Of a stretch of DNA of 64,000 nucleotides, positions 25,933 to 42,780 are shown in pieces; the stretch's first letter is position 1; the number at the start of each line of letters is the position of its first letter. Under the pieces are notes generated by a model that saw only the letters and a list, made by a program, of their open reading frames with translations, searched no databases and was not told the DNA's origin. A program made the translations under genes and the position numbers. The stretch is from Alloprevotella sp. (GTDB lineage: Bacteria > Bacteroidota > Bacteroidia > Bacteroidales > Bacteroidaceae). Location of the stretch: positions 4,365 to 68,364 of the forward strand of contig JAZRYH010000081.1 in assembly GCA_045600685.1 (NCBI GenBank), given 5' to 3'.

Positions 25933-26286
25933 TTGTACATCGTCTCCAAAACCCTCCAGGTCAGTTACGCCCATCGCCTCTCGCTCCCCTATGAGAGCGC
26001 CTGCACACAGTTCCACGGCCACAACGGCATCATCACCGTCTTCTGCTGCGCCGAGGAACTCAATGCCGAGGGCATGGTCATCGACTTCCACCACGTCAAG
26101 GACCTCGTAAAGTCCCATTTCGACCACACCTGCGTCAACGACCGTTTCCCCTTCAACCCCACGGCCGAGAATATGGCCCGTTGGATATGCGACAACGTGC
26201 CCCATTGCTTCAAGGTGCGATTCCAGGAGAGTGAGGGCAACACCGCCACATACATCAAGCCGGGATATGAAAACCTATCCTGTTAA
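25933..26286 (+). CDS. queD: 6-carboxytetrahydropterin synthase
   Basis: AHRL, C...HGHN, FDH, PTAENMA; TTG start. Confidence 0.88.
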   Translation: MYIVSKTLQVSYAHRLSLPYESACTQFHGHNGIITVFCCAEELNAEGMVIDFHHVKDLVKSHFDHTCVNDRFPFNPTAENMARWICDNVPHCFKVRFQESEGNTATYIKPGYENLSC

Positions 26287-26959
26287 CGAGATATTCTACA
26301 GTCTGCAGGGCGAAGGCATCAATGCCGGTCGCCCTGCCGTCTTCGTACGCTTCAGCGGCTGCAACCTCCGCTGCCCCTTCTGCGACACCGACCATACGGC
26401 CCACACAATGATGACGGCAGAGGAGATAATTAATAAAAGCCCTCTCCCCGCTCCCCCTTTGGAGGAGAGCTGCAACGCGGGGTCGCATTCGCTCTCTGAA
26501 CTCTCCCCCAAAGGGGGAGCGGGGCGGGGGCTTCTAATTCTCACCGGCGGCGAGCCCTCTCTCTTTATCGACGAAGCCCTCATCGCCGCCCTCCACGCCG
26601 CAGGCTTTGAGATAGCCATCGAGACCAACGGCACACGCCCCCTTCCCGCCGGCATCGACTGGGTAACCCTTTCTCCCAAAGACGCCTTCTGCCCCGATGC
26701 CACGCCCGTCATCACCGCCTGCGACGAGCTCAAGATAGTATTCACCGCCACCGGCCCCACCGACCCAGCCCTTGCCGACCTTGAGAAATGGGAGAGTGTC
26801 TTTCCCTCCACTTCTCCTCGGGGGCTTCTCATCCAGCCCTGCGACACCGGCAACCCCGAGCAGAATGTCGCCGTCACCCGCGCCGCCGTCGCCTGGGTCA
26901 AGGCCCATCCACTATGGCGGATTTCCTTACAGATACACAAGTTTTTAGGCATACGATAA
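26267..26959 (+). CDS. queE: 7-carboxy-7-deazaguanine synthase (radical SAM)
   Basis: EIFYSLQGEG, CNLRCPFCD, TGGEP, IETNG, LQIHK. Confidence 0.93.
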   Translation: MKTYPVNEIFYSLQGEGINAGRPAVFVRFSGCNLRCPFCDTDHTAHTMMTAEEIINKSPLPAPPLEESCNAGSHSLSELSPKGGAGRGLLILTGGEPSLFIDEALIAALHAAGFEIAIETNGTRPLPAGIDWVTLSPKDAFCPDATPVITACDELKIVFTATGPTDPALADLEKWESVFPSTSPRGLLIQPCDTGNPEQNVAVTRAAVAWVKAHPLWRISLQIHKFLGIR

Positions 26960-30990: not shown

Positions 30991-31266
30991 ACCTGCGATA
31001 GTATAAGCTACAAGAAAAGCGTAGGGACTTGTCCTTACTCATCTTAATAGGGTATCGCCAAACACCGCGCAGAAATGAATAAGAATATAGTAACCCCACG
31101 CTGGTATGCAATTGCTACACAGCGTGGAGAGCTATGTATCTTTACACACAGGTGGGCGTCACATGCCCTCTATCCTTCTGCTTAATGAAACTGGCGATTT
31201 CTATTAAAGGATAAAGCGTGGAACGCCTTCTTGACAGACGTTGTCTTACGCCTGCGTGTGCAAAGA

Positions 31267-31422
31267 TACGAATAAGTGAGCGAAAAGCCAAATTTATTTG
31301 AGATTTTCCGAGCGAAAGTATCTTGGGACGAAGTCCAGAGTACGAATAAGTGAGAGAAAAGCCAAATTTATTTGAGTTTTTCCGAGCGAAAGTACCTTGG
31401 GACGAAGTCCAGAGTACGAATA
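31267..31422. repeat. 74-bp tandem repeat (two copies plus a truncated third)
   Basis: TACGAATA recurs at 31267, 31341 and 31415; copies nearly identical. Confidence 0.93.
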
Positions 31423-31569
31423 TATAATCCGCAAAACGAAATGTTCTGAAAAAATAAAACGAAACGTTTCTTTCCGTAAAACGAAATGTTCTTTTTTTGA
31501 GTTCCCTCCCCCACAATGAAAAACGCCTCAGATTTCTCTGGGGCGTTTCTGTTTCCAAACCATTTATGT

Positions 31570-32208
31570 TTAGACGTTCAGGTCAAACTTGACATTTTCA
31601 TCGCCATCAAGCAACTGGTGCGTTTTCTCCTGATTGTTTTCGTATATGTGTACATTTCCGAGATTCAGCGTTATGCTTTTCAGCGGGAGATCTATCTGTC
31701 TGGCCATTAAATACAGGTGGTATATGTCAGCTGGCAATCCGAGATTCGCATCGCTGCTTCTTTGGTATGCTGACAATACCAGTTCACCGTCGTCTATTTG
31801 GAACTGCACAAGGCTCAGGCACGGAGCTTGGTTGCTCTCCGCACCAGTCTCGCCAAGGAACAGTACATAATTTTTGCTGTTGCGCTTCTCGCGGTTTATC
31901 TTCGCAATGAGTGGGGGGAGCTTTTCAAAGTAGGTCGGATAGCTGTTCACTAACACACTCCCGCAATAGTCCCACCAGTTGATTCCTACATCGCGGTATC
32001 GTTCCACATTCCTCTCCCCCTGCATAAACAGCTGCAATTCATTCTTCAGTTTTTTTCTGGCAATGCCGTGGCTCTCGAATATGTCAAGAAGGTCGGCAGG
32101 GGTCAGTGATAATTGCTCATTAAGCAGGTAGCGGATATTACCTTTCTTGTTCGTCTGGGTCTTTCCTTTCTCCAGAACCTTATCCAGTATCTGATAGTAT
32201 TTGTTCAT
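31570..32208 (-). CDS. Divergent thymidylate-synthase-fold protein
   Basis: APC catalytic Cys, YQRSSD, HIY; shorter than ThyA. Confidence 0.88.
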   Translation of the reverse strand: MNKYYQILDKVLEKGKTQTNKKGNIRYLLNEQLSLTPADLLDIFESHGIARKKLKNELQLFMQGERNVERYRDVGINWWDYCGSVLVNSYPTYFEKLPPLIAKINREKRNSKNYVLFLGETGAESNQAPCLSLVQFQIDDGELVLSAYQRSSDANLGLPADIYHLYLMARQIDLPLKSITLNLGNVHIYENNQEKTHQLLDGDENVKFDLNV

Positions 32209-32233
32209 AGTTCCAACGGTATTAGAATGCTAT

Positions 32234-33064
32234 TTAAGCAGCATTCGTATATAACATGATGTCCGTATAGGACGAGTTATAATTCATATGTGCATTGAAC
32301 TCACGACGCTGGCAGTTTTCAAACGGATTGCCGATGGTCTTGTTCCTTCCCATCCAATCACATAGTTCGATGATGGAAGACTTGTTTGATGTAAAATAGA
32401 TAAAGTGATGCCCTGCAAGCACCGTCAGCACGTCAAGGTAGTCAGACAGTTTCCAATACATCTTGTAGGTTTTGCTGTCTGTACTCAGATAGGGAGGGTC
32501 AACAAGAAATACCACACCAGGAATATCCTTGTATCGCTCAAACACCTCCCTATAATCGCAGGAAGTAATTGTAAGCCCGTCAAGGTAGTCCTGGCATAGA
32601 GGATAGCCAGTTGCCCTTATATTATTATATAATGTCTCTTTCTCCAGTTCCGTCAAGTCATTGGCATATTTCATAGAAAATAGTATCGATGAGGACAAGG
32701 TGATATAATCAATGTAGCCGTAGTCGCACTCATATTTTCGTATGCATGACAACACGCGTTCACGCAGTTCTCCCAAGATGGGTCTGTTTCGTGGTATATT
32801 CACAATAGTTCTCAACTCTGCCAGCAATGCATTTGTGATAGGAATGGCTTCAAGTCTTTTGCAGTAGCCGTCAAAGTCGTTATAAACCACTGTCGAATTA
32901 GGCTTCTGGCACTTGGCTATGTGCGACAGCAAACCGCTGCCGCCAAACAAGTCCACGAAGGTCGTACCGTCAGGGAACTGCTGGAGCACCTTGATGTACT
33001 CCTTGGCAAACATCCGCTTCTGCCCCTGGAAAGGAAGCGGTGCCGAAAGATATTGTTTTCTCAT
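32234..33064 (-). CDS. Dam-like DNA amino-methyltransferase
   Basis: PFQGQK, DLFGGSG (motif I), VYND, DPPY (motif IV); start placed at MRKQYL. Confidence 0.88.
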   Translation of the reverse strand: MRKQYLSAPLPFQGQKRMFAKEYIKVLQQFPDGTTFVDLFGGSGLLSHIAKCQKPNSTVVYNDFDGYCKRLEAIPITNALLAELRTIVNIPRNRPILGELRERVLSCIRKYECDYGYIDYITLSSSILFSMKYANDLTELEKETLYNNIRATGYPLCQDYLDGLTITSCDYREVFERYKDIPGVVFLVDPPYLSTDSKTYKMYWKLSDYLDVLTVLAGHHFIYFTSNKSSIIELCDWMGRNKTIGNPFENCQRREFNAHMNYNSSYTDIMLYTNAA

Positions 33065-33131: not shown

Positions 33132-33374
33132 TCACACTGCACCAATCGTGCAGTGCCTTCCGAAGCGCTTAATCAAATCATACACCTTGCGCTCACAAAC
33201 ATTGTACCTGTCGTGGAGCACTGACACAATGTAAGTCATTTTATCCCCAGCCTCGTGCATGCGCTTGTAATCCTCGTAAAGTGTCAGATACTGGCAGTCT
33301 TCCAGTCGAAAACCAGCAGAATTTAGCCTGTCAATAGGTTCTTTGCTTAATTTTATTATCTCGTAGTAGGTCAT
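33132..33374 (-). CDS. Small putative HTH regulator
   Basis: C-terminal LHDRYNVCERKVYDLIKRF resembles an HTH. Confidence 0.65.
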   Translation of the reverse strand: MTYYEIIKLSKEPIDRLNSAGFRLEDCQYLTLYEDYKRMHEAGDKMTYIVSVLHDRYNVCERKVYDLIKRFGRHCTIGAV

Positions 33375-33558
33375 TTCAATTTTATTTTGTACTTTTGTAT
33401 CGCCAATCATTTACGCATAAAAAACCCATATAGGGGAGCGAAGGGCATAGGCCCCCAGCTGTCCCCTATATGGGTGCTTATGTTAATAAATGATTGGCGT
33501 CTATATTAACAGGCTGGGGGCCTTCTTTGTGCCCGCCCCCAAGGGCTTTCTTCACGTT

Positions 33559-34044
33559 CTATTCTACTTGGTATTGTGCCAAGTCAAACGCAACCTTTTT
33601 CTGCCATCCGGTCTCCAGAGTTTTCTGAATGTGTTGTATGGCCTTGGTATAGAAGTCCGTCAGGTCGTCCAGTTTCTCGAACACCCTGAACACAGGCTGC
33701 TCGTCTGTTCCGAGCTTAAACTTCACAGGAAGCGTTGCGCCTTCTGACTGCACGGCAAGGTCGTAAGATGCCTTGTAGTTGAACTGATTTTCTGCTGACA
33801 GCCATACCATGTTCCCTTCATACTCGAAACCAGACAGTATGGTTTGGTTGGTATATTGGTCGTACCAGCCAATGACAGCAGCTTTTATTTCCTCATCGCA
33901 TGGCTTGTGGTTGAACTCTGCTTCCATATAGTCAGCAGCCCCATCCTCATGCACATTCACATCCCAACGGATGCGCCACTTGTTTCTTGCCGGACTGGTG
34001 CATTCAATCAGTTTTACACCGGCTGTGCCTTCTATTCTTTGCAT
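33559..34044 (-). CDS. Phage protein, possibly DUF4376-like tail-fibre chaperone
   Basis: 161-aa ORF directly after the RT; family call from recollection only. Confidence 0.55.
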   Translation of the reverse strand: MQRIEGTAGVKLIECTSPARNKWRIRWDVNVHEDGAADYMEAEFNHKPCDEEIKAAVIGWYDQYTNQTILSGFEYEGNMVWLSAENQFNYKASYDLAVQSEGATLPVKFKLGTDEQPVFRVFEKLDDLTDFYTKAIQHIQKTLETGWQKKVAFDLAQYQVE

Positions 34045-34049
34045 TGTCT

Positions 34050-35354
34050 CTAAGAAAAAACATACTTTGTTCTACCTTTCCCGAAGGTCTCCGTCTTGAT
34101 GGTAGTCTCGAATGGGAACCCATCGGGCATTTCTCTGATTTGGGCGAGGATATTCTTCATTTCCTCGCTGTTTGTGAAAAACTTCTTGGGTTCACCGTTC
34201 TGCTCAATGGCAACGATGCAGCGGTCTTCACCCTGTTCTGTTTTGATGCCCGTCTCGAAGTCTTTGACTACAATAGGGAGGTTCACTAACTCTCTGATGC
34301 TTACTACCGCACCAGAGAAGCGCTTCTTGCCGTCCTCGGGCTTGTAAGCGACTTTCAAATCCTTAAATGATTTCATTGTTTTGCCTGTTAATTTATAAAA
34401 CAACATATTACAGTTGGCGTGTTTTGCCATGCCATAGAAGCTCGCTATCAATTCACGCCGCCTTTTCCTACTTTTGACCTCGTGCATCTTGCAGGCCATC
34501 TTCTTCTTGATACGCTTGCGGAGCTCTACATGTTTGGAGCCGTATATCACATAGCCAAGAAAGTCGATGCCCTCACTCACAGGGAACACACGCTCGTTGG
34601 CTTTCACCTCCAAGTCTATCTGCTCCACCAACTCGTGTACCACATCACGAATAAGCCACAATTCCGCTTTCGATTTTCCGAGTACGACGCCGTCATCACA
34701 ATAGCGGTAGAAATGACGCACGCCGTACCTGTCTTTCAAATAGTGGTCTAAAAACACAGACAATAAGAGATTGCCCAGCCCCTGGGAACTCCGCAGTCCG
34801 ATGCTGATACCCGATGGCATCATGCGCACGAACCCGTCCAGCAGGTTGATGAGCTTTTCATCCTTGAAGATACGTTTCACGCAGTACATCACAAAGTCAG
34901 GCCGTACGTTGTCATAGAACTTTGAAATGTCGAACTTGTAGCAATACCGCGTTCCGTCCGGATCTTCCTTCAAGTCCCGCCGGATGTACGACAGCAAATC
35001 GTGCATCCCCCGTTCCTTGATGCTTGCAGAGGTAGTACGGATGAAACGCTTGCGCATGTGCTTGTCCACGACATTCATCACGGCATGTACGCCTATGCGG
35101 TCATACATTGAGAGCACTTGTATCTTGCGCAGCTTGCCGCCTTCAAAAATCTCGCGTTCCTTGTAGTCCTTTACGGTGAATGTGCCAGCAGTTATACGTT
35201 CTGTCAAATCCCGTATTACCTCATCTCTATGCGCAAGAAGCCAGCGTCCCTGGCGTGAGCGTTTTCGCTTAGAACCACGGAGAACCGTATCAAAGGATTC
35301 CGACATGTTGCCATAGTCCACAATCTCCTCGATGATGTAACCTTCCCTGTGCAT
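34050..35354 (-). CDS. DGR reverse transcriptase with C-terminal extension
   Basis: KFDISKFYD, GISIGLRSSQ (DGR-type SQ), YRYCDD, IDFLGY; adjacent TR/VR pair. Confidence 0.95.
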   Translation of the reverse strand: MHREGYIIEEIVDYGNMSESFDTVLRGSKRKRSRQGRWLLAHRDEVIRDLTERITAGTFTVKDYKEREIFEGGKLRKIQVLSMYDRIGVHAVMNVVDKHMRKRFIRTTSASIKERGMHDLLSYIRRDLKEDPDGTRYCYKFDISKFYDNVRPDFVMYCVKRIFKDEKLINLLDGFVRMMPSGISIGLRSSQGLGNLLLSVFLDHYLKDRYGVRHFYRYCDDGVVLGKSKAELWLIRDVVHELVEQIDLEVKANERVFPVSEGIDFLGYVIYGSKHVELRKRIKKKMACKMHEVKSRKRRRELIASFYGMAKHANCNMLFYKLTGKTMKSFKDLKVAYKPEDGKKRFSGAVVSIRELVNLPIVVKDFETGIKTEQGEDRCIVAIEQNGEPKKFFTNSEEMKNILAQIREMPDGFPFETTIKTETFGKGRTKYVFS

Positions 35355-35589
35355 AGTTGAACTTTTGTTGGTAATTTAGGAAGATGCCTTCCTTCCTTGG
35401 GTCCAAGTTCTTCGAGATGCTGCCACCCTACCAAACTCTACCCGTCACTCCGTTTTTCACCTTTCCAGTACATGGGACAAAGCCATGTCCTTCATGTGCG
35501 AAGGTAAACTGCTTTTGGTGAGGCTCGGCTCCCTCGGCTCCGCATCGGGGACACGTCCCCATTGCTGTACGCCGATTTTGTTTCCTTTG

Positions 35590-35710
35590 GTTGTTGTCCA
35601 GGCGCGACCCGACATTCGTGTTCGAGTTCGACGCATCGTTACTCGCATTCGCGTACGACACACCGCCATTCGCATTCGCGTTGTTGTTGCCGCGATAGAC
35701 CACACGGCCT
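35590..35710 (-). repeat. DGR template repeat (TR)
   Basis: Ungapped match to 35968-36088; rich in AAY codons; all differences at TR adenines. Confidence 0.96.
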
Positions 35711-35755
35711 ATGAGAGCTTCTACCTTGAAAAGTGCGTGGCAAACTTTTCCTCTG

Positions 35756-35763
35756 CAAAGGTA
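35756..35763 (-). promoter_or_regulatory. -7 promoter element for the TR-RT transcript
   Basis: TACCTTTG on the minus strand about 45 nt before TR. Confidence 0.7.
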
Positions 35764-35907
35764 CGAAATTTTAGCGAGCCTACCCCGATTTTTTACATAC
35801 TTCGACGGGCTTCGCCCGTATTTCTTGATGTCTTCGTTCCTCAGACATTGCGTTTTTCGCTTTACGCTGCGCTTTTGTCGCTTCGCTCCCGCTTTACGTG
35901 TTTTCGC

Positions 35908-38900
35908 TTACGCAACCTCGGTGGCCGACTTGAACGCGGCCACGCTTGCCGCTTTCTCGATTTCTCCGCGGAAGGCCAGGCGCGACCCGACATACGTGAC
36001 CGAGTTCGACGCATCGCCACTCGCATACGCGGACGACACACCGCCAAACGCACTCGCGTAGCTGTAGCCGCGATAGACCACACGGCCTGCCGATCCAGAG
36101 TATTGATAATAGTCACAGTAATGGGTTGTGCTGCTCCCCGTCGCTGCCGCAGGCACCACATCCATGTATTTGCCGTGAACCACGCCGTTGATGTAGCCCG
36201 TAGCTTCCACGCCTTTCACGCGGCGGTACGTTCCGTCCGGCATCTGGTAGCGCCATTTGCCCACATTTCCGCTGTCGTTCGGCACGTCCACGCAGTCCAT
36301 CATGTCGTACTTGTGTCCATACACGTCTTCGTAACCCAGGCAGTTCGTGTTGTTCAAGGTGCTATAGACCGTCTCACCGACAGAGTTCGTCTCTTTGTAG
36401 AACGACTTGCCGTTGCCCTCCACACCGCCAATAGTCGTACCGTCCGTATTCACCGTGTCTTGCATGCCTATCTTGGCCGTGCCGCCCGTCGTCCTTGACG
36501 TTGAGTGCTGGCCTGCACCGCACTGCATCTGGCTGTCTCGCCTGCCGTACTTCGCAAAGAACAGGTTCGCAATGTCATTGTGCATAAGTCCGTCTATCTG
36601 CTGCATACCGCGCTGCGCAGAGTAGAAATGGAAGTCGGTCCATGTCATGGAGTGAGTTGTCGAACCGCCAGTGATGCAGGCACGTAGCTTGTCGCCCACT
36701 ACGCTGCTACCTACCACACCGCACAAATAGGGCTCCACTTCAACCCAGTCTGGCTCCATGTCCTCTATCTTATCCGAGTTGCTCAACACCACCATGTCAA
36801 ACTCTGCAGTCTTCCTTATTGTAAAATTCAGTGCGATTGCTCCCTCCGGAACGTCGGCTATCAGGTACATACCATCCGTGAACTTCGCGCCAAGAGTGCT
36901 CACCACGATTGTATCTACCACATTACCTTCGGCATCCGTAAATACCGAACCCACCAGGTTCGTACCAGGCACGCTCGGGAAGCGAACCTTCTGGAAACCA
37001 CTCACGCTAACCCTGCATACGGCAAAGTTACTGTCTGATGTATAGCTGGCTGATAGCGTTTCCTTCCCGCTCATTATCTTGTAGTTGTTTCGGTAGTCGC
37101 CTGCCTCGGTGATGTCTTCCAGCGTCAATACCATGCACTCCGGACGCTTCGGCATTGCCGCATTACTGCTCCAGCACGCATAATGCTTGCCGTTCAGGTA
37201 GTCGTTCACGCCCTTCATCCAGCGGTGTGGCTCATACATCATCCAGTCGCCCTCCGTACCGTCAAGATTTGCCTCCGTGCAGTTGCGCAGGTTCTCGGCA
37301 TCTGCATAGTAGTTGGAGTTCTCGTCGTGCAGCGGGTATATCGTCATCCTGCCGTCAGTGTTGTTCTGGGTCGTCTGTACGCCTGCGTGCGTAATGTTTC
37401 GGGAAGTAGGCCTCTTTGTCAGCTTGGCCAGGCAGCGGAACCGCTTCTTCAGAATGGCCAGTACATGGCCGCTGGCCTCATAGTCGCTGCCGTACTTGTA
37501 GCCTGTCTCGTTGTCAAGGTTGCTCACGTTGGCATCATCGCTCACCGTGTCGTCAAACTCCAGCACAGAATACTCAGGCTGATGGATTGTAAGTTCCGGA
37601 TAATGCTCCTGCATAGTTGCAAATTCGGTATCGTCCATGTAGCGTGTCAGCTGAACAGTGCCGACCATGGCACAGTAATCCACCGCGTTTCCGCTAGCAT
37701 CCACGCCCTTCAGCGTTTTGTATCGGTTCAGCATAGTGCCGTCATCCTCTATGTTGATGCCTTCTATGCGTACACGCTCTATATTTACGCATTTGTTGAT
37801 TATCGACTGCCAGCTGATGTATGGGCAGCCGGCATAGCGCAGCGTCTTCACCGTACGCCAGCTCTGCAGCGTCAGGCCGCTTTCCGTCAGCAACGGCAGG
37901 TACTCCAGTCGAAGTGTCTGTATGTTGCTGCCCAGTTTCGCACTTGTCAAGGGGCTGCCCTGGGCAAACAGCACGGCTTGCACGTCCACACCGCGCGCAT
38001 CAAGCGTCTCAAGCCTGGTCTGGTTCCTGAAATCAAGCTCCGTACTGCTCAGCGTGCCCGTCCTGGCACTCCCTTGGCCCTGTAGGTTCACATCGACCAG
38101 TTGGCGGCACTGGTCAAGCACAAGGCACCACCCCTGGCTCCCGCTCCCGCTCGTACTGATATTCAGCACACGCAGTACCTTGCACTTGTTAAGGTTCAAG
38201 TCGCCCGTCAGGTTGCCAGCCGACCCACGCATGTCCAGCTCGGCCATCTGGCTCGCTCCGTAAAGGCGGATGGGGTCATTCACCGTGAAGGCGTTAGTGA
38301 ACGTCAGCGTCACCGTCTCGCCCTTCGCAGCTTTGGCCGAAGGCTGCAGGTGTGGTGCGTTGTTCGTGCCATAACCATAGTAGTATAGGCTGTTCGACTT
38401 CACCTTTATCGTGTTGGCAGTCGCACCAGCCTGGCGTGTCATGTACATATCGACATTGTCGCTGAGGTAGTTTCCTGTCTCGTACTTCGCATCGAGCAGG
38501 GCGAAGCGGTTCTTGATGAACCAGTGCCTGAAGGCTTTCTTATCTCCTTTCAGTGCATAGATGTAAGGGTACTTCACGGTCTCACCATTCACCTCTACTC
38601 CTTCGGTCTGTGGCTTGATGTATTTCAGTTCGCCGCTCTTGTTGAAGGCACGCCCGCACCAGTTGCCTTGCTGCTCTTCGTCAAACATGGTGTTCACCTT
38701 GTCCTCGGTCAGCTTCGCACGCATGGCTGTGGCCATTGCCTTCAGGTCGTCGCCGAGGTTGGCCAGTACCAGACACCACAGCCACGAGTCATGACCCTCG
38801 AAGGCATACTTGCTTTTCTCCGAGTCCCATGTATCACGGGTTACGTCATACAAGTATGCCAGCATCGAGTCGTTTCTGTCACCAAGCTGCGTGTCGCCGT

Positions 38901-41900
38901 CATAATAGATAAAGTACCATACAAGCTGGTCCCATGTCGCCAGTATCATGTTCTTCGCCCTCTGGTCCACATTCACGAAATAGTCAGTGAACAGATACCA
39001 GCACAGCAGGAAGTTCTTGTCGAAATAGTCCTCCAGCTCTTCCACGAATTTCTCGCTCTCGAAGGTGCTGATGTCGTCCACGTCGGCATCTTCAGGAACA
39101 CAGTCTCTCACCCATCCCCACAGTCTCTTGAAGGCGTTCTTTTGGGCTGTCGTTGCCGTTGCCCATGTTGTGTCTGCAGGGTGGTTGAACTCCAGTGCGT
39201 CGTCAAATTCATCCGCTGCCTGTGCATCAAGGTCTGCCTCGCCCTGGAACAGGCACAGCGGCTGCGTGTTGTTCAGGAACTCGAAAGCCATCGAGTCCTC
39301 CGTCTCAAGGCCATCGACATTAGTCAGGCCCAGTATGTCCGTCCAGTCGCTCTTGTCGTGGTTCAGGTTGTACTGTCCGTAGTATTCCGGGGTGTCTTCA
39401 AGGCTCTCGGCTGAGAACACGTCAATAGGATAGCCGTCAACGGCTGTGCGTTTCGTGACATCAATTGCCTGCGCCGGGGTCAGGAACCCGAGCGACTTCA
39501 TCAGGTCGTTCCACAGTTTCGCGCCGCCCGTGTTCTGCGCCATTGAAGAGTCGCTGTAGTCCGCTTTCGGACACAGTATCTTCACCGTCGGCTGTCCTAT
39601 GCGCAGCGGCAGGCGGTTGCTCCCCTGCAGCACGCCGTTCACATACATCTCGGGGCTTTCGCCTTTTGCACAGTAAATGCGGTAGTTCTTCGTCGGGTAC
39701 TTCGTCGAACTGGTTCCCTGGATTCTCACATATACATTCTTCAGATACACATAGCGTCCGTCCGGCAGCCATAGGTGCACGTCGCTCAGGAAGTCGGTCT
39801 TCTTGTTATTCTCGGCATTCACTGGGGCAAGGCCGTTCTCCCTGCACACCAGCATCAGGCCCTTGCCCTTCGCGCTCAACTTGTCGAAGTCTATGCTCCT
39901 GCCGTCTTCGGTAAGCACGTCATTCTCCTCGAACAGCTCGGCCATCTCGTCCAGCGTCTGGCGGTCCACGATGTAGTTGTCCATCTCTTCGTCATCGCTC
40001 AGCGCACGCTCATAAACGCGCACCTTGCGCACTTCCACGTCGGCACCCTCGCCGCTCAGTGTGATGCCTTGCGCTGTGCCCTGGATGAAGTTGTCGCTGT
40101 CTCCGTAGATGTCGGCAGCCGCACGCACGCCGTTCACATAGAGCTCCATCAGCCTGCCGTCGGCACGCTTGCCTATCACGAAGGCTATCTTCACCCACAT
40201 GTCCGCTCCGTACTGGCGGCCTACGCCAACAGCCTGCTCCGTCGTGCCCCCGTCATCATCCGTCACCTCTTTAGTGGAACCCGTGTACATCATGGCCTTC
40301 TCTGCCGTTATCTGGAAGCCTTTGTTGCCGTTCATGCAGCTCACCACGTCGGCCTCGCTGTCCACGATGTTGCTCACCTTCATCTCCACCTCTATCGTGC
40401 AGCCGTTTGTGGCGGCATCCTGGATGAAGGGCTTGTAGCCGATGACGGCCTTCGCGCCGTTCATCAGTTTCAAGGCGTCGCCGGTCCAGCCGCTCGTCTG
40501 CCAATCTACATCTTCGAAGGATGTATGCACCGTGCCCGCCTCCCAGTGCGCAGGGTCGCTCTCGCCGTTGCTGCGGCCAGAGGCGTCAAGCTTCAGCTCC
40601 AGCCCAAGGGTGGCTTCACTGGCGTCTATGCTGCTCGCTGACACATCCACGTTGAAAGCATACTCCGTCGCACCGCACACAAATTTCATTTCCTGCTCTC
40701 CCTGCTCCGTGAAGCGGTTGGTGTAGGTCTGGGTACTTCGGGGCACGCTCACTGTCTGGATCACGCTCTCACCCTGCCATACGCTCACCGTCGCAGGGGT
40801 CACGCCAGCATCATACACGGCATACTCCAGCGTCATCTGTTCATACTGGCCTACCTTGACTGTCGGGGTCAGGTGCTCGTCCTCGTCAAACACCCTGCCG
40901 TCAGCGAACGTCAGTTTCATGCCTATCAGCGGAACACTGCTCCCTGCCTTGAAAACGTCCATGTAGATGCTCTCGCTCCGCAGCGTCAGCGTCTCGCTGG
41001 CTTCCATCTCTGCCACTATCTGCACCGTGTGCCTCCCCACGCTCAGACCGCTCATGGCCACACTGAAACTGCCGTTCGTCGTGCCGCTTCGCGTCACCGT
41101 CGTGCTGTCGGCCTGCTCGCCGTCAACATAGAGGAACACGGTCTTTGTACCCGTGCCCTGAATGGTCCACGGGATGACGGCACTCTCCGTCTGAAGGTAG
41201 CCGCCACCTGTCAGCCCGTTGCTCAGGCTGTAGCTGCTGCTCAGGCGGAGGTTCACCACGCGCACGTTTGCATAGGCCTGCTTCGTCTGGGTGTTGCCCG
41301 TGGCTGGGTCAGTCGTTGTGGCCTTCACATAGATGTCGGTAGTGCCGGCCTGCAGGTACTTGCTCACGTCCAGGGTGTAGCTCCCAGCGCTCACATCGCT
41401 CTTTTCCTCGCGGTATGCCTGGATGCTGCCGCGCATCACGCGTATCTCCACTGTCGCCTTCTGGCCCGTGGTCTCGCCGGCATCGTCACCGCCCACATAC
41501 TGGTGGTCGTAAATCCAGGTCAGCACGCAAGCACCGCCTTCCTTGATGATGCCTTGGCTTACGCTCGCGCCAAGCACTATCTTGGCGGTCTGCGCCTCGC
41601 CACCCCCGCCGCCGCTTCCGGCAGGAATATCCACGCTGGCTATTTCCGCCCCGCTGCTGTTCTTCAGGCTCAGGGTCACAGTGCTCTCGTCATCGCTCAG
41701 GTCCGCATCCATCGAGAACACCGTACCGGCTTCTATCTCTGCTATCTTGCCGGCCACGGCCCGGTTCTCCACCGGATTGGTGCTCTCCGTGTCAAGACTC
41801 GAGTCCACTTCAACCTCTTCCACGGTCATGTTGATATTGCCCTGGGCATCCGGACTGACCGTTTCTCCGTTCAGCGTCACGCTCTTCACCGTCCCGCCGC

Positions 41901-42780
41901 CGCCGAAGTCATCCCAGCTACCCGCGCTCTCCCAGCTGTTGAGGTTCGTACCCACAAACTGCTTGGTCACCCATTTCCCCTGCGCCGACTCAAAGGTCAC
42001 GCACGCTCCCTTCACGCGCTTCTTCTCTTCCACGGCAGCGACGGCCGTGGCAAGCGTATGGAAACCCTCTTCCAGCGGGTAGGCCTCGCTCACATTGATG
42101 ATGGTGCCGCCACCCTTGCCGCTTGCCTCCACAAGGTCTTCCTCCTCCGCGTTCCATGCGTAGAGGACATCGCCAAGAAGGTAGAGCTTGTCTTGCTTGA
42201 TGCGCTGGGGGGAGGCACTCAGGTCGTTGTACATCTCGCACCCGGCCCATGAACTGCTGTAATTCCCGCCGTTTTTACCCACAAACAGTTTTTTCGCCGC
42301 CACATAGTAGATGGCTGCCACCGACACAAAACTCTGCGGTTGCAGCGTCACGTCGTCAAGGATGCCGTCAAACCTCGCGGTCGCACCGTCAAAGGCTTTA
42401 CCTGCCACCGTGGCATGGTCGGCCACAACGCCTGCCGCTGCCTCCGTCACTGTCTCTGTCGCCGCCATGGCGGACAGAGCGGCCTCCTTGGCTTCCAAAG
42501 CCGCTTCTGCGGCTGCTCCTGCTGTTTCACTCGCAGTTTCTGCTTCTTCCTTGGCGGCCAGGGCCTGCGTCGCAGCGGCCAGAGCCTGAGCTGCGGCAGC
42601 GGTGGCTGGAGCACCCAGCAGACTGACCGGGGCCAGCACCATTTCCTCGCCGCGCAGTGCGGGGAGGGCATTCACTCCTGCCAGCGACGTCACCTCGTCC
42701 AGTTCCGTCACATCCTGGCTCTCGCTCTTAATCTGGTTGACGATTTCTTCAACCAATGCTTCTTTCTCTTGATCTGTCAT
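35908..42780 (-). CDS. Giant tail/receptor-binding protein, DGR target (2290 aa)
   Basis: Follows tail genes; C-terminus carries the VR (GRVVYRG...VGSRLAF). Confidence 0.9.
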   Translation of the reverse strand: MTDQEKEALVEEIVNQIKSESQDVTELDEVTSLAGVNALPALRGEEMVLAPVSLLGAPATAAAAQALAAATQALAAKEEAETASETAGAAAEAALEAKEAALSAMAATETVTEAAAGVVADHATVAGKAFDGATARFDGILDDVTLQPQSFVSVAAIYYVAAKKLFVGKNGGNYSSSWAGCEMYNDLSASPQRIKQDKLYLLGDVLYAWNAEEEDLVEASGKGGGTIINVSEAYPLEEGFHTLATAVAAVEEKKRVKGACVTFESAQGKWVTKQFVGTNLNSWESAGSWDDFGGGGTVKSVTLNGETVSPDAQGNINMTVEEVEVDSSLDTESTNPVENRAVAGKIAEIEAGTVFSMDADLSDDESTVTLSLKNSSGAEIASVDIPAGSGGGGGEAQTAKIVLGASVSQGIIKEGGACVLTWIYDHQYVGGDDAGETTGQKATVEIRVMRGSIQAYREEKSDVSAGSYTLDVSKYLQAGTTDIYVKATTTDPATGNTQTKQAYANVRVVNLRLSSSYSLSNGLTGGGYLQTESAVIPWTIQGTGTKTVFLYVDGEQADSTTVTRSGTTNGSFSVAMSGLSVGRHTVQIVAEMEASETLTLRSESIYMDVFKAGSSVPLIGMKLTFADGRVFDEDEHLTPTVKVGQYEQMTLEYAVYDAGVTPATVSVWQGESVIQTVSVPRSTQTYTNRFTEQGEQEMKFVCGATEYAFNVDVSASSIDASEATLGLELKLDASGRSNGESDPAHWEAGTVHTSFEDVDWQTSGWTGDALKLMNGAKAVIGYKPFIQDAATNGCTIEVEMKVSNIVDSEADVVSCMNGNKGFQITAEKAMMYTGSTKEVTDDDGGTTEQAVGVGRQYGADMWVKIAFVIGKRADGRLMELYVNGVRAAADIYGDSDNFIQGTAQGITLSGEGADVEVRKVRVYERALSDDEEMDNYIVDRQTLDEMAELFEENDVLTEDGRSIDFDKLSAKGKGLMLVCRENGLAPVNAENNKKTDFLSDVHLWLPDGRYVYLKNVYVRIQGTSSTKYPTKNYRIYCAKGESPEMYVNGVLQGSNRLPLRIGQPTVKILCPKADYSDSSMAQNTGGAKLWNDLMKSLGFLTPAQAIDVTKRTAVDGYPIDVFSAESLEDTPEYYGQYNLNHDKSDWTDILGLTNVDGLETEDSMAFEFLNNTQPLCLFQGEADLDAQAADEFDDALEFNHPADTTWATATTAQKNAFKRLWGWVRDCVPEDADVDDISTFESEKFVEELEDYFDKNFLLCWYLFTDYFVNVDQRAKNMILATWDQLVWYFIYYDGDTQLGDRNDSMLAYLYDVTRDTWDSEKSKYAFEGHDSWLWCLVLANLGDDLKAMATAMRAKLTEDKVNTMFDEEQQGNWCGRAFNKSGELKYIKPQTEGVEVNGETVKYPYIYALKGDKKAFRHWFIKNRFALLDAKYETGNYLSDNVDMYMTRQAGATANTIKVKSNSLYYYGYGTNNAPHLQPSAKAAKGETVTLTFTNAFTVNDPIRLYGASQMAELDMRGSAGNLTGDLNLNKCKVLRVLNISTSGSGSQGWCLVLDQCRQLVDVNLQGQGSARTGTLSSTELDFRNQTRLETLDARGVDVQAVLFAQGSPLTSAKLGSNIQTLRLEYLPLLTESGLTLQSWRTVKTLRYAGCPYISWQSIINKCVNIERVRIEGINIEDDGTMLNRYKTLKGVDASGNAVDYCAMVGTVQLTRYMDDTEFATMQEHYPELTIHQPEYSVLEFDDTVSDDANVSNLDNETGYKYGSDYEASGHVLAILKKRFRCLAKLTKRPTSRNITHAGVQTTQNNTDGRMTIYPLHDENSNYYADAENLRNCTEANLDGTEGDWMMYEPHRWMKGVNDYLNGKHYACWSSNAAMPKRPECMVLTLEDITEAGDYRNNYKIMSGKETLSASYTSDSNFAVCRVSVSGFQKVRFPSVPGTNLVGSVFTDAEGNVVDTIVVSTLGAKFTDGMYLIADVPEGAIALNFTIRKTAEFDMVVLSNSDKIEDMEPDWVEVEPYLCGVVGSSVVGDKLRACITGGSTTHSMTWTDFHFYSAQRGMQQIDGLMHNDIANLFFAKYGRRDSQMQCGAGQHSTSRTTGGTAKIGMQDTVNTDGTTIGGVEGNGKSFYKETNSVGETVYSTLNNTNCLGYEDVYGHKYDMMDCVDVPNDSGNVGKWRYQMPDGTYRRVKGVEATGYINGVVHGKYMDVVPAAATGSSTTHYCDYYQYSGSAGRVVYRGYSYASAFGGVSSAYASGDASNSVTYVGSRLAFRGEIEKAASVAAFKSATEVA
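35968..36088 (-). repeat. DGR variable repeat (VR)
   Basis: 13 mismatches in the 113-bp core and 18 over 121 bp versus TR. Confidence 0.96.

Follow-up and report, generated by a model that had tools for sequence, protein, structure and literature searches.

The stretch analysed here, 64,000 nucleotides of Alloprevotella sp. DNA (the window; contig JAZRYH010000081.1), contains what appears to be a Hankyphage-like transposable prophage, and the last two genes of this prophage, both on the minus strand, form a cassette that encodes an amino-methyltransferase and a homologue of thymidylate synthase (TS). The TS homologue has the fold of ThyA and bears the active-site residues that mark enzymes modifying cytosine. 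It is conserved under purifying selection, it lies in the terminal position that Mu-like prophages reserve for mom, it changes partners from locus to locus, and its orthologue in Hankyphage is induced together with the phage. The best reading of these data, to which we give a probability of roughly 45%, is that the cassette places partial, sequence-independent 5-methylcytosine (5mC) and N6-methyladenine (m6A) in phage DNA as a protection against restriction. The enzyme type is already known from lytic phages; the new part is its kinase-free, temperate version.

The TS homologue and its active site

The protein has 212 amino acids (aa) and contains YQRSSDANLGLPADI. It matches the Pfam family PF00303 (Thymidylat_synt) at 74 bits, for a cut-off of 24, and stays under all the equivalog cut-offs that NCBIfam sets for ThyA (best score 64 versus 327 bits; TIGR03284, 59 versus 108). 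In what follows, positions of E. coli ThyA are equated by alignment with those of the window protein. A preliminary description of this DNA had claimed that Asn177 is replaced by aspartate, and this is so (Asp161); the other specificity positions are His147 = Leu131, Leu143 = Gln127, Asp169 = Asp153 and Ser167 = Ser151. The catalytic and binding residues that it listed as kept are all in place (Cys146 = Cys130, Glu58 = Glu57, Arg166 = Arg150, His207/Tyr209 = His187/Tyr189), as are Trp80 = Trp79 and Tyr94 = Tyr90, and the phosphate-site arginines that it regarded as lost are replaced, mostly by lysines (Arg21 = Lys21, Arg126 = Lys112, Arg127 = Asn113). Its short C-terminus has to be redescribed. 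The deletion, of about 45 residues, is internal; the K-F-x-L-N-V tail at the very end, retained in nearly all members, aligns with the end of the E. coli protein (Ala263/Ile264 = Asn211/Val212), which rules out a truncated C-terminus.

An AlphaFold model computed from a 107-row alignment (mean confidence score, pLDDT, 96) best fits ThyA (Z 21.4, root-mean-square deviation 2.4 over 202 residues), and Foldseek concurs. Further fold matches are the flavin-dependent hydroxylase of deoxycytidine monophosphate (dCMP) 9iqc (Z 19.9), MilA (18.5) and T4 gp42 (17.1).

How general are these features? The family set comprises 239 distinct proteins, in 106 clusters at 90%, with identities of 33–100%. Glu57, Trp79, Tyr90, Asn113, Cys130, Arg150, Asp153, Asp161, His187 and Tyr189 are invariant; Cys130, Arg150 and Asp153, with the PF00303 match, place the family in the TS fold superfamily. 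Position 147 is never His (Leu/Ile), Gln127 and Lys22 each occur in 238/239, Ser151 in 237/239, Lys112 in 235/239 (Arg in 4) and Lys21 in 198/239 (Arg in 21). Two of the family scans used patterns containing the Asp. In a recount made without them, Asp161 was found in 118/118 distinct proteins, taken from two scans whose patterns did not all demand it, and in 120/120 closest database matches, and its presence is therefore not due to chance. Among 150 representatives, mostly fragments, 52 span the motif, with Asp in 48 and another residue in 4. The median isoelectric point (pI) of the family is 8.35, versus 5.6–6.4 in the reference enzymes; the window protein itself is net acidic, with a pI of 6.1.

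Papers are cited here by accession or preprint number, for the portions of their text that were accessible. Asp177 together with a change at His147 marks cytosine-modifying TS homologues (PMC8670742), which supports a cytosine substrate and bears out the cytosine-type specificity proposed for this uncharacterised enzyme. Apart from the phage gene, the host genome encodes a canonical thyA (Asn177, Arg-Arg), and this counts for a role other than that of ThyA. His207 and Tyr209 are the residues that bind the 3'-OH, and Ser167 confers the preference for deoxyribose (PMC5175136); since all three are kept, a free deoxynucleotide is a better candidate than DNA or CMP. As for the phosphate site, MilA has Lys at Arg126 and acts on a monophosphate (PMC5175136), and T4 gp42, also a monophosphate enzyme, has Lys at Arg21 by alignment. 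For Arg127>Asn none of the enzymes compared offers a parallel; the lost charge may be made good by Lys22, which is nearly invariant. Given these lysine precedents and the invariant 3'-OH binders, the most probable substrate is still a free nucleotide, and the evidence points strongly to dCMP.

The product can be read from three other features. Asp or Glu at 143 accompanies hydroxymethylation, and D169N accompanies hydroxylation (PMC13326640). In our alignment, position 143 is Asn in the verified Xp12 dCMP methylase, Asp in T4 gp42 and Glu in RB69 gp48. In ThyA the six C-terminal residues form a lid over folate, a region that T4 gp42 does not have (PMC5175136). Gln143, a non-acidic amide as in Xp12, the conserved Asp169 and the retained folate-closing tail together argue moderately for a methyl rather than a hydroxymethyl product, and the Asp169 kept throughout means that the enzyme is not a D169N hydroxylase. 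On sequence criteria, the signature (Asp both at 177 and at 169, and a residue at 143 that is not acidic) fits the Xp12 enzyme better than T4-type hydroxymethylases or RB69-type hydroxylases; nor is it that of MilA, which combines Lys at Arg126 with Ala at Ser167.

The clade is distinct and strongly conserved under purifying selection. Between the window protein and the relative at locus L002, 99% of amino acids are identical and 57% of synonymous sites differ; the nonsynonymous (dN) and synonymous (dS) distances are 0.017 and 1.08 (dN/dS 0.016). For the methylases of the same pair the values are 0.088, 1.27 and 0.07, so that the TS homologue is under the tighter constraint. Across the 16 unsaturated of 184 comparisons the median dN/dS is 0.034, including a value of 1.17 for L123 that reflects an out-of-register ungapped comparison. 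A decayed ThyA or pseudogene is ruled out by the low dN/dS and by premature stops in only 3/320 (redundant) loci.

The family is large and patchy. It comprises at least 8000 scored candidates, about 850 IMG/VR stretches and 505 stretches among 185,579 species genomes, the best 80 of the 505 being nearly all from Bacteroidales, Flavobacteriales and their relatives; a search of 300 further genomes, sampled evenly across the class of the host, found no member at E<=1e-45. The ESM Atlas yielded just the family's own clusters. In the tree the clade (support 100/98, long stem) stands beside ThyA and full-length ThyA-like proteins with Asp177, apart from Xp12, T4 and RB69. An independent origin of Asp177 is suggested, in a tree where long branches meet and the bootstrap is not settled. 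Three of the full-length proteins (P0259, P0268 and P0270) keep Leu143 and Arg21 and have Arg127 partly changed (RR, RK, RQ), and are possible intermediates between ThyA and the compact clade. For the most distant members (P0229, P0264 and P0233) no viral loci were found; a metagenome scan for their context returned 9 loci, short or of the clade already sampled. The contigs that carry these distant members are short.

The terminal cassette, its partners and its expression

The prophage ends at base 31,423, 147 bp past the TS stop codon. Homology with related phages ceases there, and contigs from three public runs (X1, X2 and X3) terminate at the same base. The methylase gene stops 25 bp ahead of the TS start, and the earlier placement of the TS gene directly after a DPPY methylase at the phage end, in the slot of mom, is thus upheld. 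The coordinates are collected in Table 1.

Table 1. Features at the prophage's right end (positions in the window)
Feature	Position	Strand	Remarks
Right end of transposable prophage with short direct repeats	31423..31495	.	Repeats 31428-31447/31473-31492 and 31455-31495
Hairpin and T run just 3' of the TS stop codon	31521..31548	-	Inverted repeat 31521-31532/31537-31548; kept in relatives
TS homologue, compact ThyA-fold enzyme, 212 aa, cytosine-type	31570..32208	-	Asp161 = Asn177; predicted dCMP C5-methyltransferase
D12-class amino-methyltransferase, 276 aa, Hia5/Hin1523-type	32234..33064	-	PF02086; predicted broad-specificity m6A methylase
Small winged-helix protein at head of cassette	33132..33374	-	phrog_17790; 49% identical to Hankyphage hp44; start maybe 33410
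Conserved structured element ahead of cassette	33390..33545	.	Fold z-score -7.1; candidate regulatory or antisense RNA
DUF4376 gene, reverse transcriptase and RT-3 RNA of diversity-generating retroelement (context)	33559..35577	-	Same order in Hankyphage

The methylase contains DLFGGSG and DPPY and matches Pfam MethyltransfD12. It is 34% identical over its whole length to SuMu_53, the post-Com gene at the end of the Mu-like Haemophilus phage SuMu. In a sequence search of the PDB it gave just non-significant matches to T4 Dam. Among its distinct relatives 166/177 are intact, and DPPY is present in 165 of these 166. DPPY enzymes can also make N4-methylcytosine. The D12 class with FxGxG and DPPY, the right-end mom position and the homology to a post-Com gene are the marks of the Hia5/Hin1523 type, and by this homology the methylase is predicted to add m6A with broad specificity. 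The mom slot of Mu-like prophages holds Hia5/Hin1523, which are non-specific m6A enzymes whose activity was not seen in native lysogens (PMC3299994).

Do the two enzymes form one pathway, as first proposed? The survey of gene co-occurrence that had been suggested does not support a single two-enzyme pathway. Among 81 close loci (80 viral contigs and Hankyphage), a Hia5-type methylase is present in 73, upstream of the TS gene in 42 and downstream in 31; 3 loci are without it and 5 are incomplete. Among 80 species-genome loci, of which 7 are incomplete, 56 have a Hia5-type methylase, 4 another, Dam-type methylase that is barely alignable to that of the window, and 13, with full flanks, none. A DNA-modifying gene thus stands beside the TS gene in 60 of the 73 informative genome loci. 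In Flavobacterium prophages, TS copies without a partner stand at the end of tail/lysis operons. Since the order can be reversed, the partner can change and the TS gene can stand alone, the two genes do not make up one pathway; the TS gene is a unit of its own within a shared slot for DNA protection.

Other loci widen the picture. At L236:3335-4901 and L037:5926-7029 a fusion of ABC-ATPase and GNAT domains follows the TS gene and replaces the methylase, with a formyltransferase added in L236; this arrangement may be a Mom-like system for acylating adenine, placed where the methylase would otherwise be. A TS member at L163:6001-6636 lies within the transfer region of a conjugative element, with a DUF4138/TraN-type gene upstream of it and an integrase gene downstream; phages are thus not the only carriers of the TS gene. 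In freshwater or marine non-Mu phages (L138:8636-9055, L246:3742-4200) the TS gene lies among ERF, DnaB and NinG genes, often directly ahead of a short protein that resembles a PD-(D/E)xK nuclease by eye and has no Pfam match.

The cassette of Hankyphage responds to induction. After knock-down of the repressor, transcripts of the gene annotated as ThyA changed by log2 +1.99, 1.54, 1.77 and 4.37 at 1, 2, 6 and 22 h, and those of the methylase by +3.88, 4.24, 1.62 and 2.40 (PMC12135933, S2 Data). The early rise of ThyA is smaller than that of most structural genes (PMC12135933); fold changes alone do not show whether this reflects basal expression in the lysogen.

Several further elements surround the cassette. 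The hairpin behind the TS gene is likely its intrinsic terminator; the terminator scan did not list it. The direct repeats at the prophage end are typical of transposase-binding ends and presumably act as such. The small winged-helix gene is a possible Mor/C-type activator, its Hankyphage counterpart hp44 giving a weak Mor match (E 0.004, under the Pfam cut-off). A sigma-70 promoter scan gave matches at chance level. The structured element has no Rfam match at E<=1, and its marker motif occurs in 187/208 loci having the Mor-like gene, 54 of them without a reverse transcriptase of the diversity-generating retroelement (DGR) upstream. It consists of long nested stems and a 10-bp GC-rich helix (arms ~33449-33459 and 33513-33523), the helix being followed by a T run on the plus strand; over 35 sequences its pairing holds in 98% of cells, and G-U as well as compensatory changes occur there. 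The element also holds a promoter motif that resembles the Bacteroides consensus TAnnTTTG and is directed away from the cassette. The pattern of G-U variation speaks for an RNA transcribed in antisense to the cassette, a lead to be set beside the fact that related sequences may outscore the shuffle control even when unstructured.

Upstream lie Mu-type tail, head and terminase genes, so that the window holds the late genes, the DGR and the terminal cassette, the transposase end lying beyond the contig. The DGR is complete (34050-42780, with the reverse transcriptase at 34050-35354 and the RT-3 RNA at 35398-35577); its target is the C-terminus of a 2290-aa tail-fibre gene, and contigs from the runs display a repeat joint 35994/35617. 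On the other side, at 31000-31420, the prophage is inserted beside a host repeat (82-bp direct repeat) present at many places in the genome. Farther into the host DNA (25933-26959), as judged by translation only, a Fic-domain gene comes after QueD-like and QueE-like (radical SAM) genes.

From dCMP to marked DNA: the favoured explanation and its rivals

How would such a cassette protect a phage? Induction leads to its expression, as seen for Hankyphage. A dimer of the TS-fold enzyme would then methylate part of the dCMP pool to 5-methyl-dCMP, using methylene-tetrahydrofolate. During replicative transposition, host kinases and the replicative polymerase would set 5mC at a random fraction of cytosines, which is the weakest step of the scheme. 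The methylase, judging by its homologues, would add m6A after replication and independently of the TS homologue. Progeny DNA with both bases marked would resist restriction on entering new hosts; the anti-restriction role proposed in the preliminary description is in this sense supported as a probable one.

The missing phage kinase is the main weakness of 5mC marking by the cassette, and it heads a list of points that weigh against it. No kinase, dCTPase, polymerase, dihydrofolate reductase (DHFR), deaminase or glycosyltransferase was found in the Hankyphage annotation or in the 26 of its 46 proteins, small or unknown ones, that were scanned, nor in the 93 of 144 neighbour open reading frames (ORFs) scanned, nor in 14 non-Mu loci, whose 210 ORFs were scanned through 140 representatives. 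The nearest matches are a weak C-terminal one to a 'nucleotide kinase' PHROG (E 4e-4) in a 126-aa neighbour ORF and a 225-aa P-loop protein that weakly matches AAA_24/DnaB families, not nucleoside monophosphate (NMP) kinases. T4, RB69 and Xp12 carry such helper genes, and a full cytosine-replacement pathway, with a phage deoxynucleoside monophosphate (dNMP) kinase, a dCTPase or deaminase and its own polymerase, is not what we find. In E. coli, TS homologues without a phage kinase gave mere trace product (PMC13326640); in a published screen with T4 gp1, 5/7 Asp177 enzymes made 5-methyl-deoxycytidine and 2/7 made none (bioRxiv 2024.12.05.627091). The host's ComEB-type dCMP deaminase could drain 5-methyl-dCMP to thymidine monophosphate (dTMP). 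Arg127>Asn and Gln143 are combinations without assayed precedent, and the overall sequence is nearer to ThyA than to Xp12 (the family profile scores 90 and 34 bits, respectively, and the tree parts the latter from the family, but long branches meet), the likeness to Xp12 being confined to motifs. Lastly, in 15 non-Mu aquatic loci the TS gene has genes for replication and recombination around it and no D12 methylase (in 3/15 a methylase of another class lies within a few kb), a setting that suits nucleotide supply equally well.

The host may ease the kinase gap. A canonical thymidylate kinase (Tmk; TIGR00041 over cut-off) is present in 3/50 genomes of the host's class, Bacteroidia, versus 149/150 in the phylum's other classes, and B. 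thetaiotaomicron is the sole one of 14 controls without it; Cmk is present in 56/61 genomes. Because most Bacteroidia are without canonical Tmk, phosphorylation of a 5-methyl-pyrimidine dNMP in these hosts must fall to a non-canonical kinase, and this kinase may pass 5-methyl-dCMP on, a step that we infer weakly. An altered specificity of host Cmk was considered and rejected: in an alignment with solved Cmks, the one Bacteroidia Cmk examined has base-binding motifs that look canonical, which is a further difficulty for 5mC marking. The gene cmk was not found in the host genome, which is 85% complete, so that this result is uninformative; the weak Tmk-like match of the host is not Tmk, being instead a deoxynucleoside-kinase pair. 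A literature search on host kinases for 5-methyl-dCMP, or on missing Tmk in Bacteroidetes, gave nothing relevant, and the accessible part of PMC10653934 does not mention Bacteroidetes.

Some alternatives dispense with 5mC in DNA. Canonical dCMP deaminases probably accept 5-methyl-dCMP, and the host deaminase might turn the product into dTMP, so that during lytic replication thymidine triphosphate (dTTP) is boosted, or its balance with deoxycytidine triphosphate (dCTP) restored, with little 5mC reaching DNA. Such a thymidylate bypass needs no phage kinase, agrees with the place of the TS gene in non-Mu relatives, and has a parallel in the deamination of 5-methyl-deoxycytidine to thymine nucleotides proposed as an Xp12-type route (bioRxiv 2024.12.05.627091). 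However, the host already has ThyA, and the TS gene of the informative genome loci mostly occupies a late terminal slot beside DNA-modifying genes, not one with replication genes; we consider the bypass unlikely. Counter-defence or interference with host enzymes without any marking of DNA, for instance buffering of cytosine nucleotides against dCTP-depleting defences or poisoning of ThyA in mixed dimers, might account for the extreme conservation, if this reflects a host partner, and for stand-alone copies in unrelated mobile elements. Yet the complete catalytic set is invariant and nothing positive points to a partner, which leaves this very improbable. The ordinary synthesis of dTMP from deoxyuridine monophosphate (dUMP), as GenBank annotates, draws on the best sequence and fold matches, which are to ThyA, and on a tree that puts the clade nearer to ThyA than to T4, RB69 and Xp12, on long branches. 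The uracil-linked Asn177 and His147 are nevertheless replaced throughout, the set of four phosphate arginines (21, 126', 127' and 166) is broken, the scores lie far under the equivalog cut-offs, and the host has its own thyA; the annotated function is improbable in the extreme.

Other alternatives change the chemistry or the substrate. Gln143 could admit water and yield 5-hydroxymethyl-dCMP, hence partial 5-hydroxymethylcytosine without glycosylation. The polar residue in place of Leu, the lysine at Arg21 as in T4 gp42, an internal C-terminal loss that resembles the shorter C-terminus of gp42 and the lack of DHFR beside the TS gene all go in this direction; but known hydroxymethylases have Asp or Glu at 143, where the Xp12 methylase has an amide, the terminal lid is retained, no glycosyl- or carbamoyltransferase was seen among the scanned neighbours, and the kinase problem is worse for 5-hydroxymethyl-dCMP, so that this product seems distinctly unlikely. 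Alternatively, the remodelled phosphate site (Lys21, Lys22, Lys112, Asn113) may take deoxycytidine diphosphate (dCDP), dCTP or cytosine in DNA, and a single 212-aa gene would then modify cytosine with no monophosphate kinase at all. This would explain why kinases are absent from Mu-like, non-Mu and conjugative-element contexts, and Lys22 and Asn113 are indeed specific to a family that is more basic than the references. Lysines at 21 and 126, though, occur in active monophosphate enzymes, His187/Tyr189 bind a free 3'-OH, which speaks against DNA, and the window protein is acidic; to our knowledge, no TS-fold enzyme acts on triphosphates or DNA. The earlier suggestion of a substrate other than a free monophosphate thus keeps the unprecedented Arg127>Asn in its favour, loses ground to the lysine precedents and the invariant 3'-OH pair, and is rather improbable. 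If it were true, temperate phages and conjugative elements would place 5-modified cytosine, independently of sequence, in the host's DNA as well as in their own, and would do so in one of the most widespread groups of human-gut phages.

Partial 5mC with m6A, the explanation that we favour, has consequences of its own. In the literature consulted, pre-replicative modification of cytosine is documented for lytic phages equipped with a kinase, a dCTPase and a polymerase of their own; here a one-gene version in temperate phages dependent on the host polymerase would give partial, random 5mC from host machinery alone. Random 5mC and random m6A would make a double anti-restriction coat, and induced lysogens of the Hankyphage type would mark host DNA too. 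The label 'thymidylate synthase' in GenBank, and the auxiliary 'thyA' of gut viromes, is a common mis-annotation that the present analysis corrects, and a gap in host biology is exposed, in that Bacteroidia mostly do without canonical thymidylate kinase. No paper on this TS clade was found in the literature searched, on which subscription papers and an earlier survey may also bear; the word 'thymidylate' is absent from the main texts of the Hankyphage papers PMC12135933 and PMC6199706 and was not found in the accessible part of the Bacteroides methylome paper PMC10333322.

Comparison with known systems

The closest system is Hankyphage (Bacteroides phage p00, BK010646; jmh43_hp, PV107405), whose orthologues are 86% (TS) and 65% (methylase) identical. 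The same cassette of hp44, TS and methylase follows the DGR at its right end, with the same active-site signature; the gene order is reversed with respect to the window, where the methylase comes first, and the TS gene is annotated there as plain ThyA. For the methylase, the nearest models are Hia5, Hin1523 and Nma1821 (PMC3299994), which share its right-end position, size, FxGxG and DPPY. They differ in that the window has no Com gene that we could see, a Mor-like gene and a structured leader instead, and a cytosine-type TS partner.

For the TS homologue, the comparison leads to lytic phages and to Streptomyces. The dCMP methylase of Xp12 (QNN97214; Asp196, Asp188, Asn162) has in common with it Asp177, Asp169, an amide at 143, the motifs R-S-S-D and G-L-P-x-D and a residue other than His at 147. 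The homology is distant (31% over 91 aa), and Xp12 keeps Arg21/126/127; it is a lytic phage that carries DHFR, dCMP deaminase and ribonucleotide reductase and replaces all its cytosine, whereas the window clade is compact, temperate and without helpers that we could find. T4 gp42 and Streptomyces MilA share the fold, Asp177 and one lysine each at the phosphate site and differ by Asp at 143; T4 has its own kinase, dCTPase, polymerase and glucosyltransferases, and MilA, with Ala at Ser167, prefers CMP. The flavin dCMP hydroxylases RB69 gp48 and DLP3 gp80 (PMC13326640) again share the fold and Asp177, but their diagnostic D169N does not occur in the window clade, and Glu58 and Trp80, lost in RB69 gp48, are kept in the enzyme that closes the Alloprevotella prophage.

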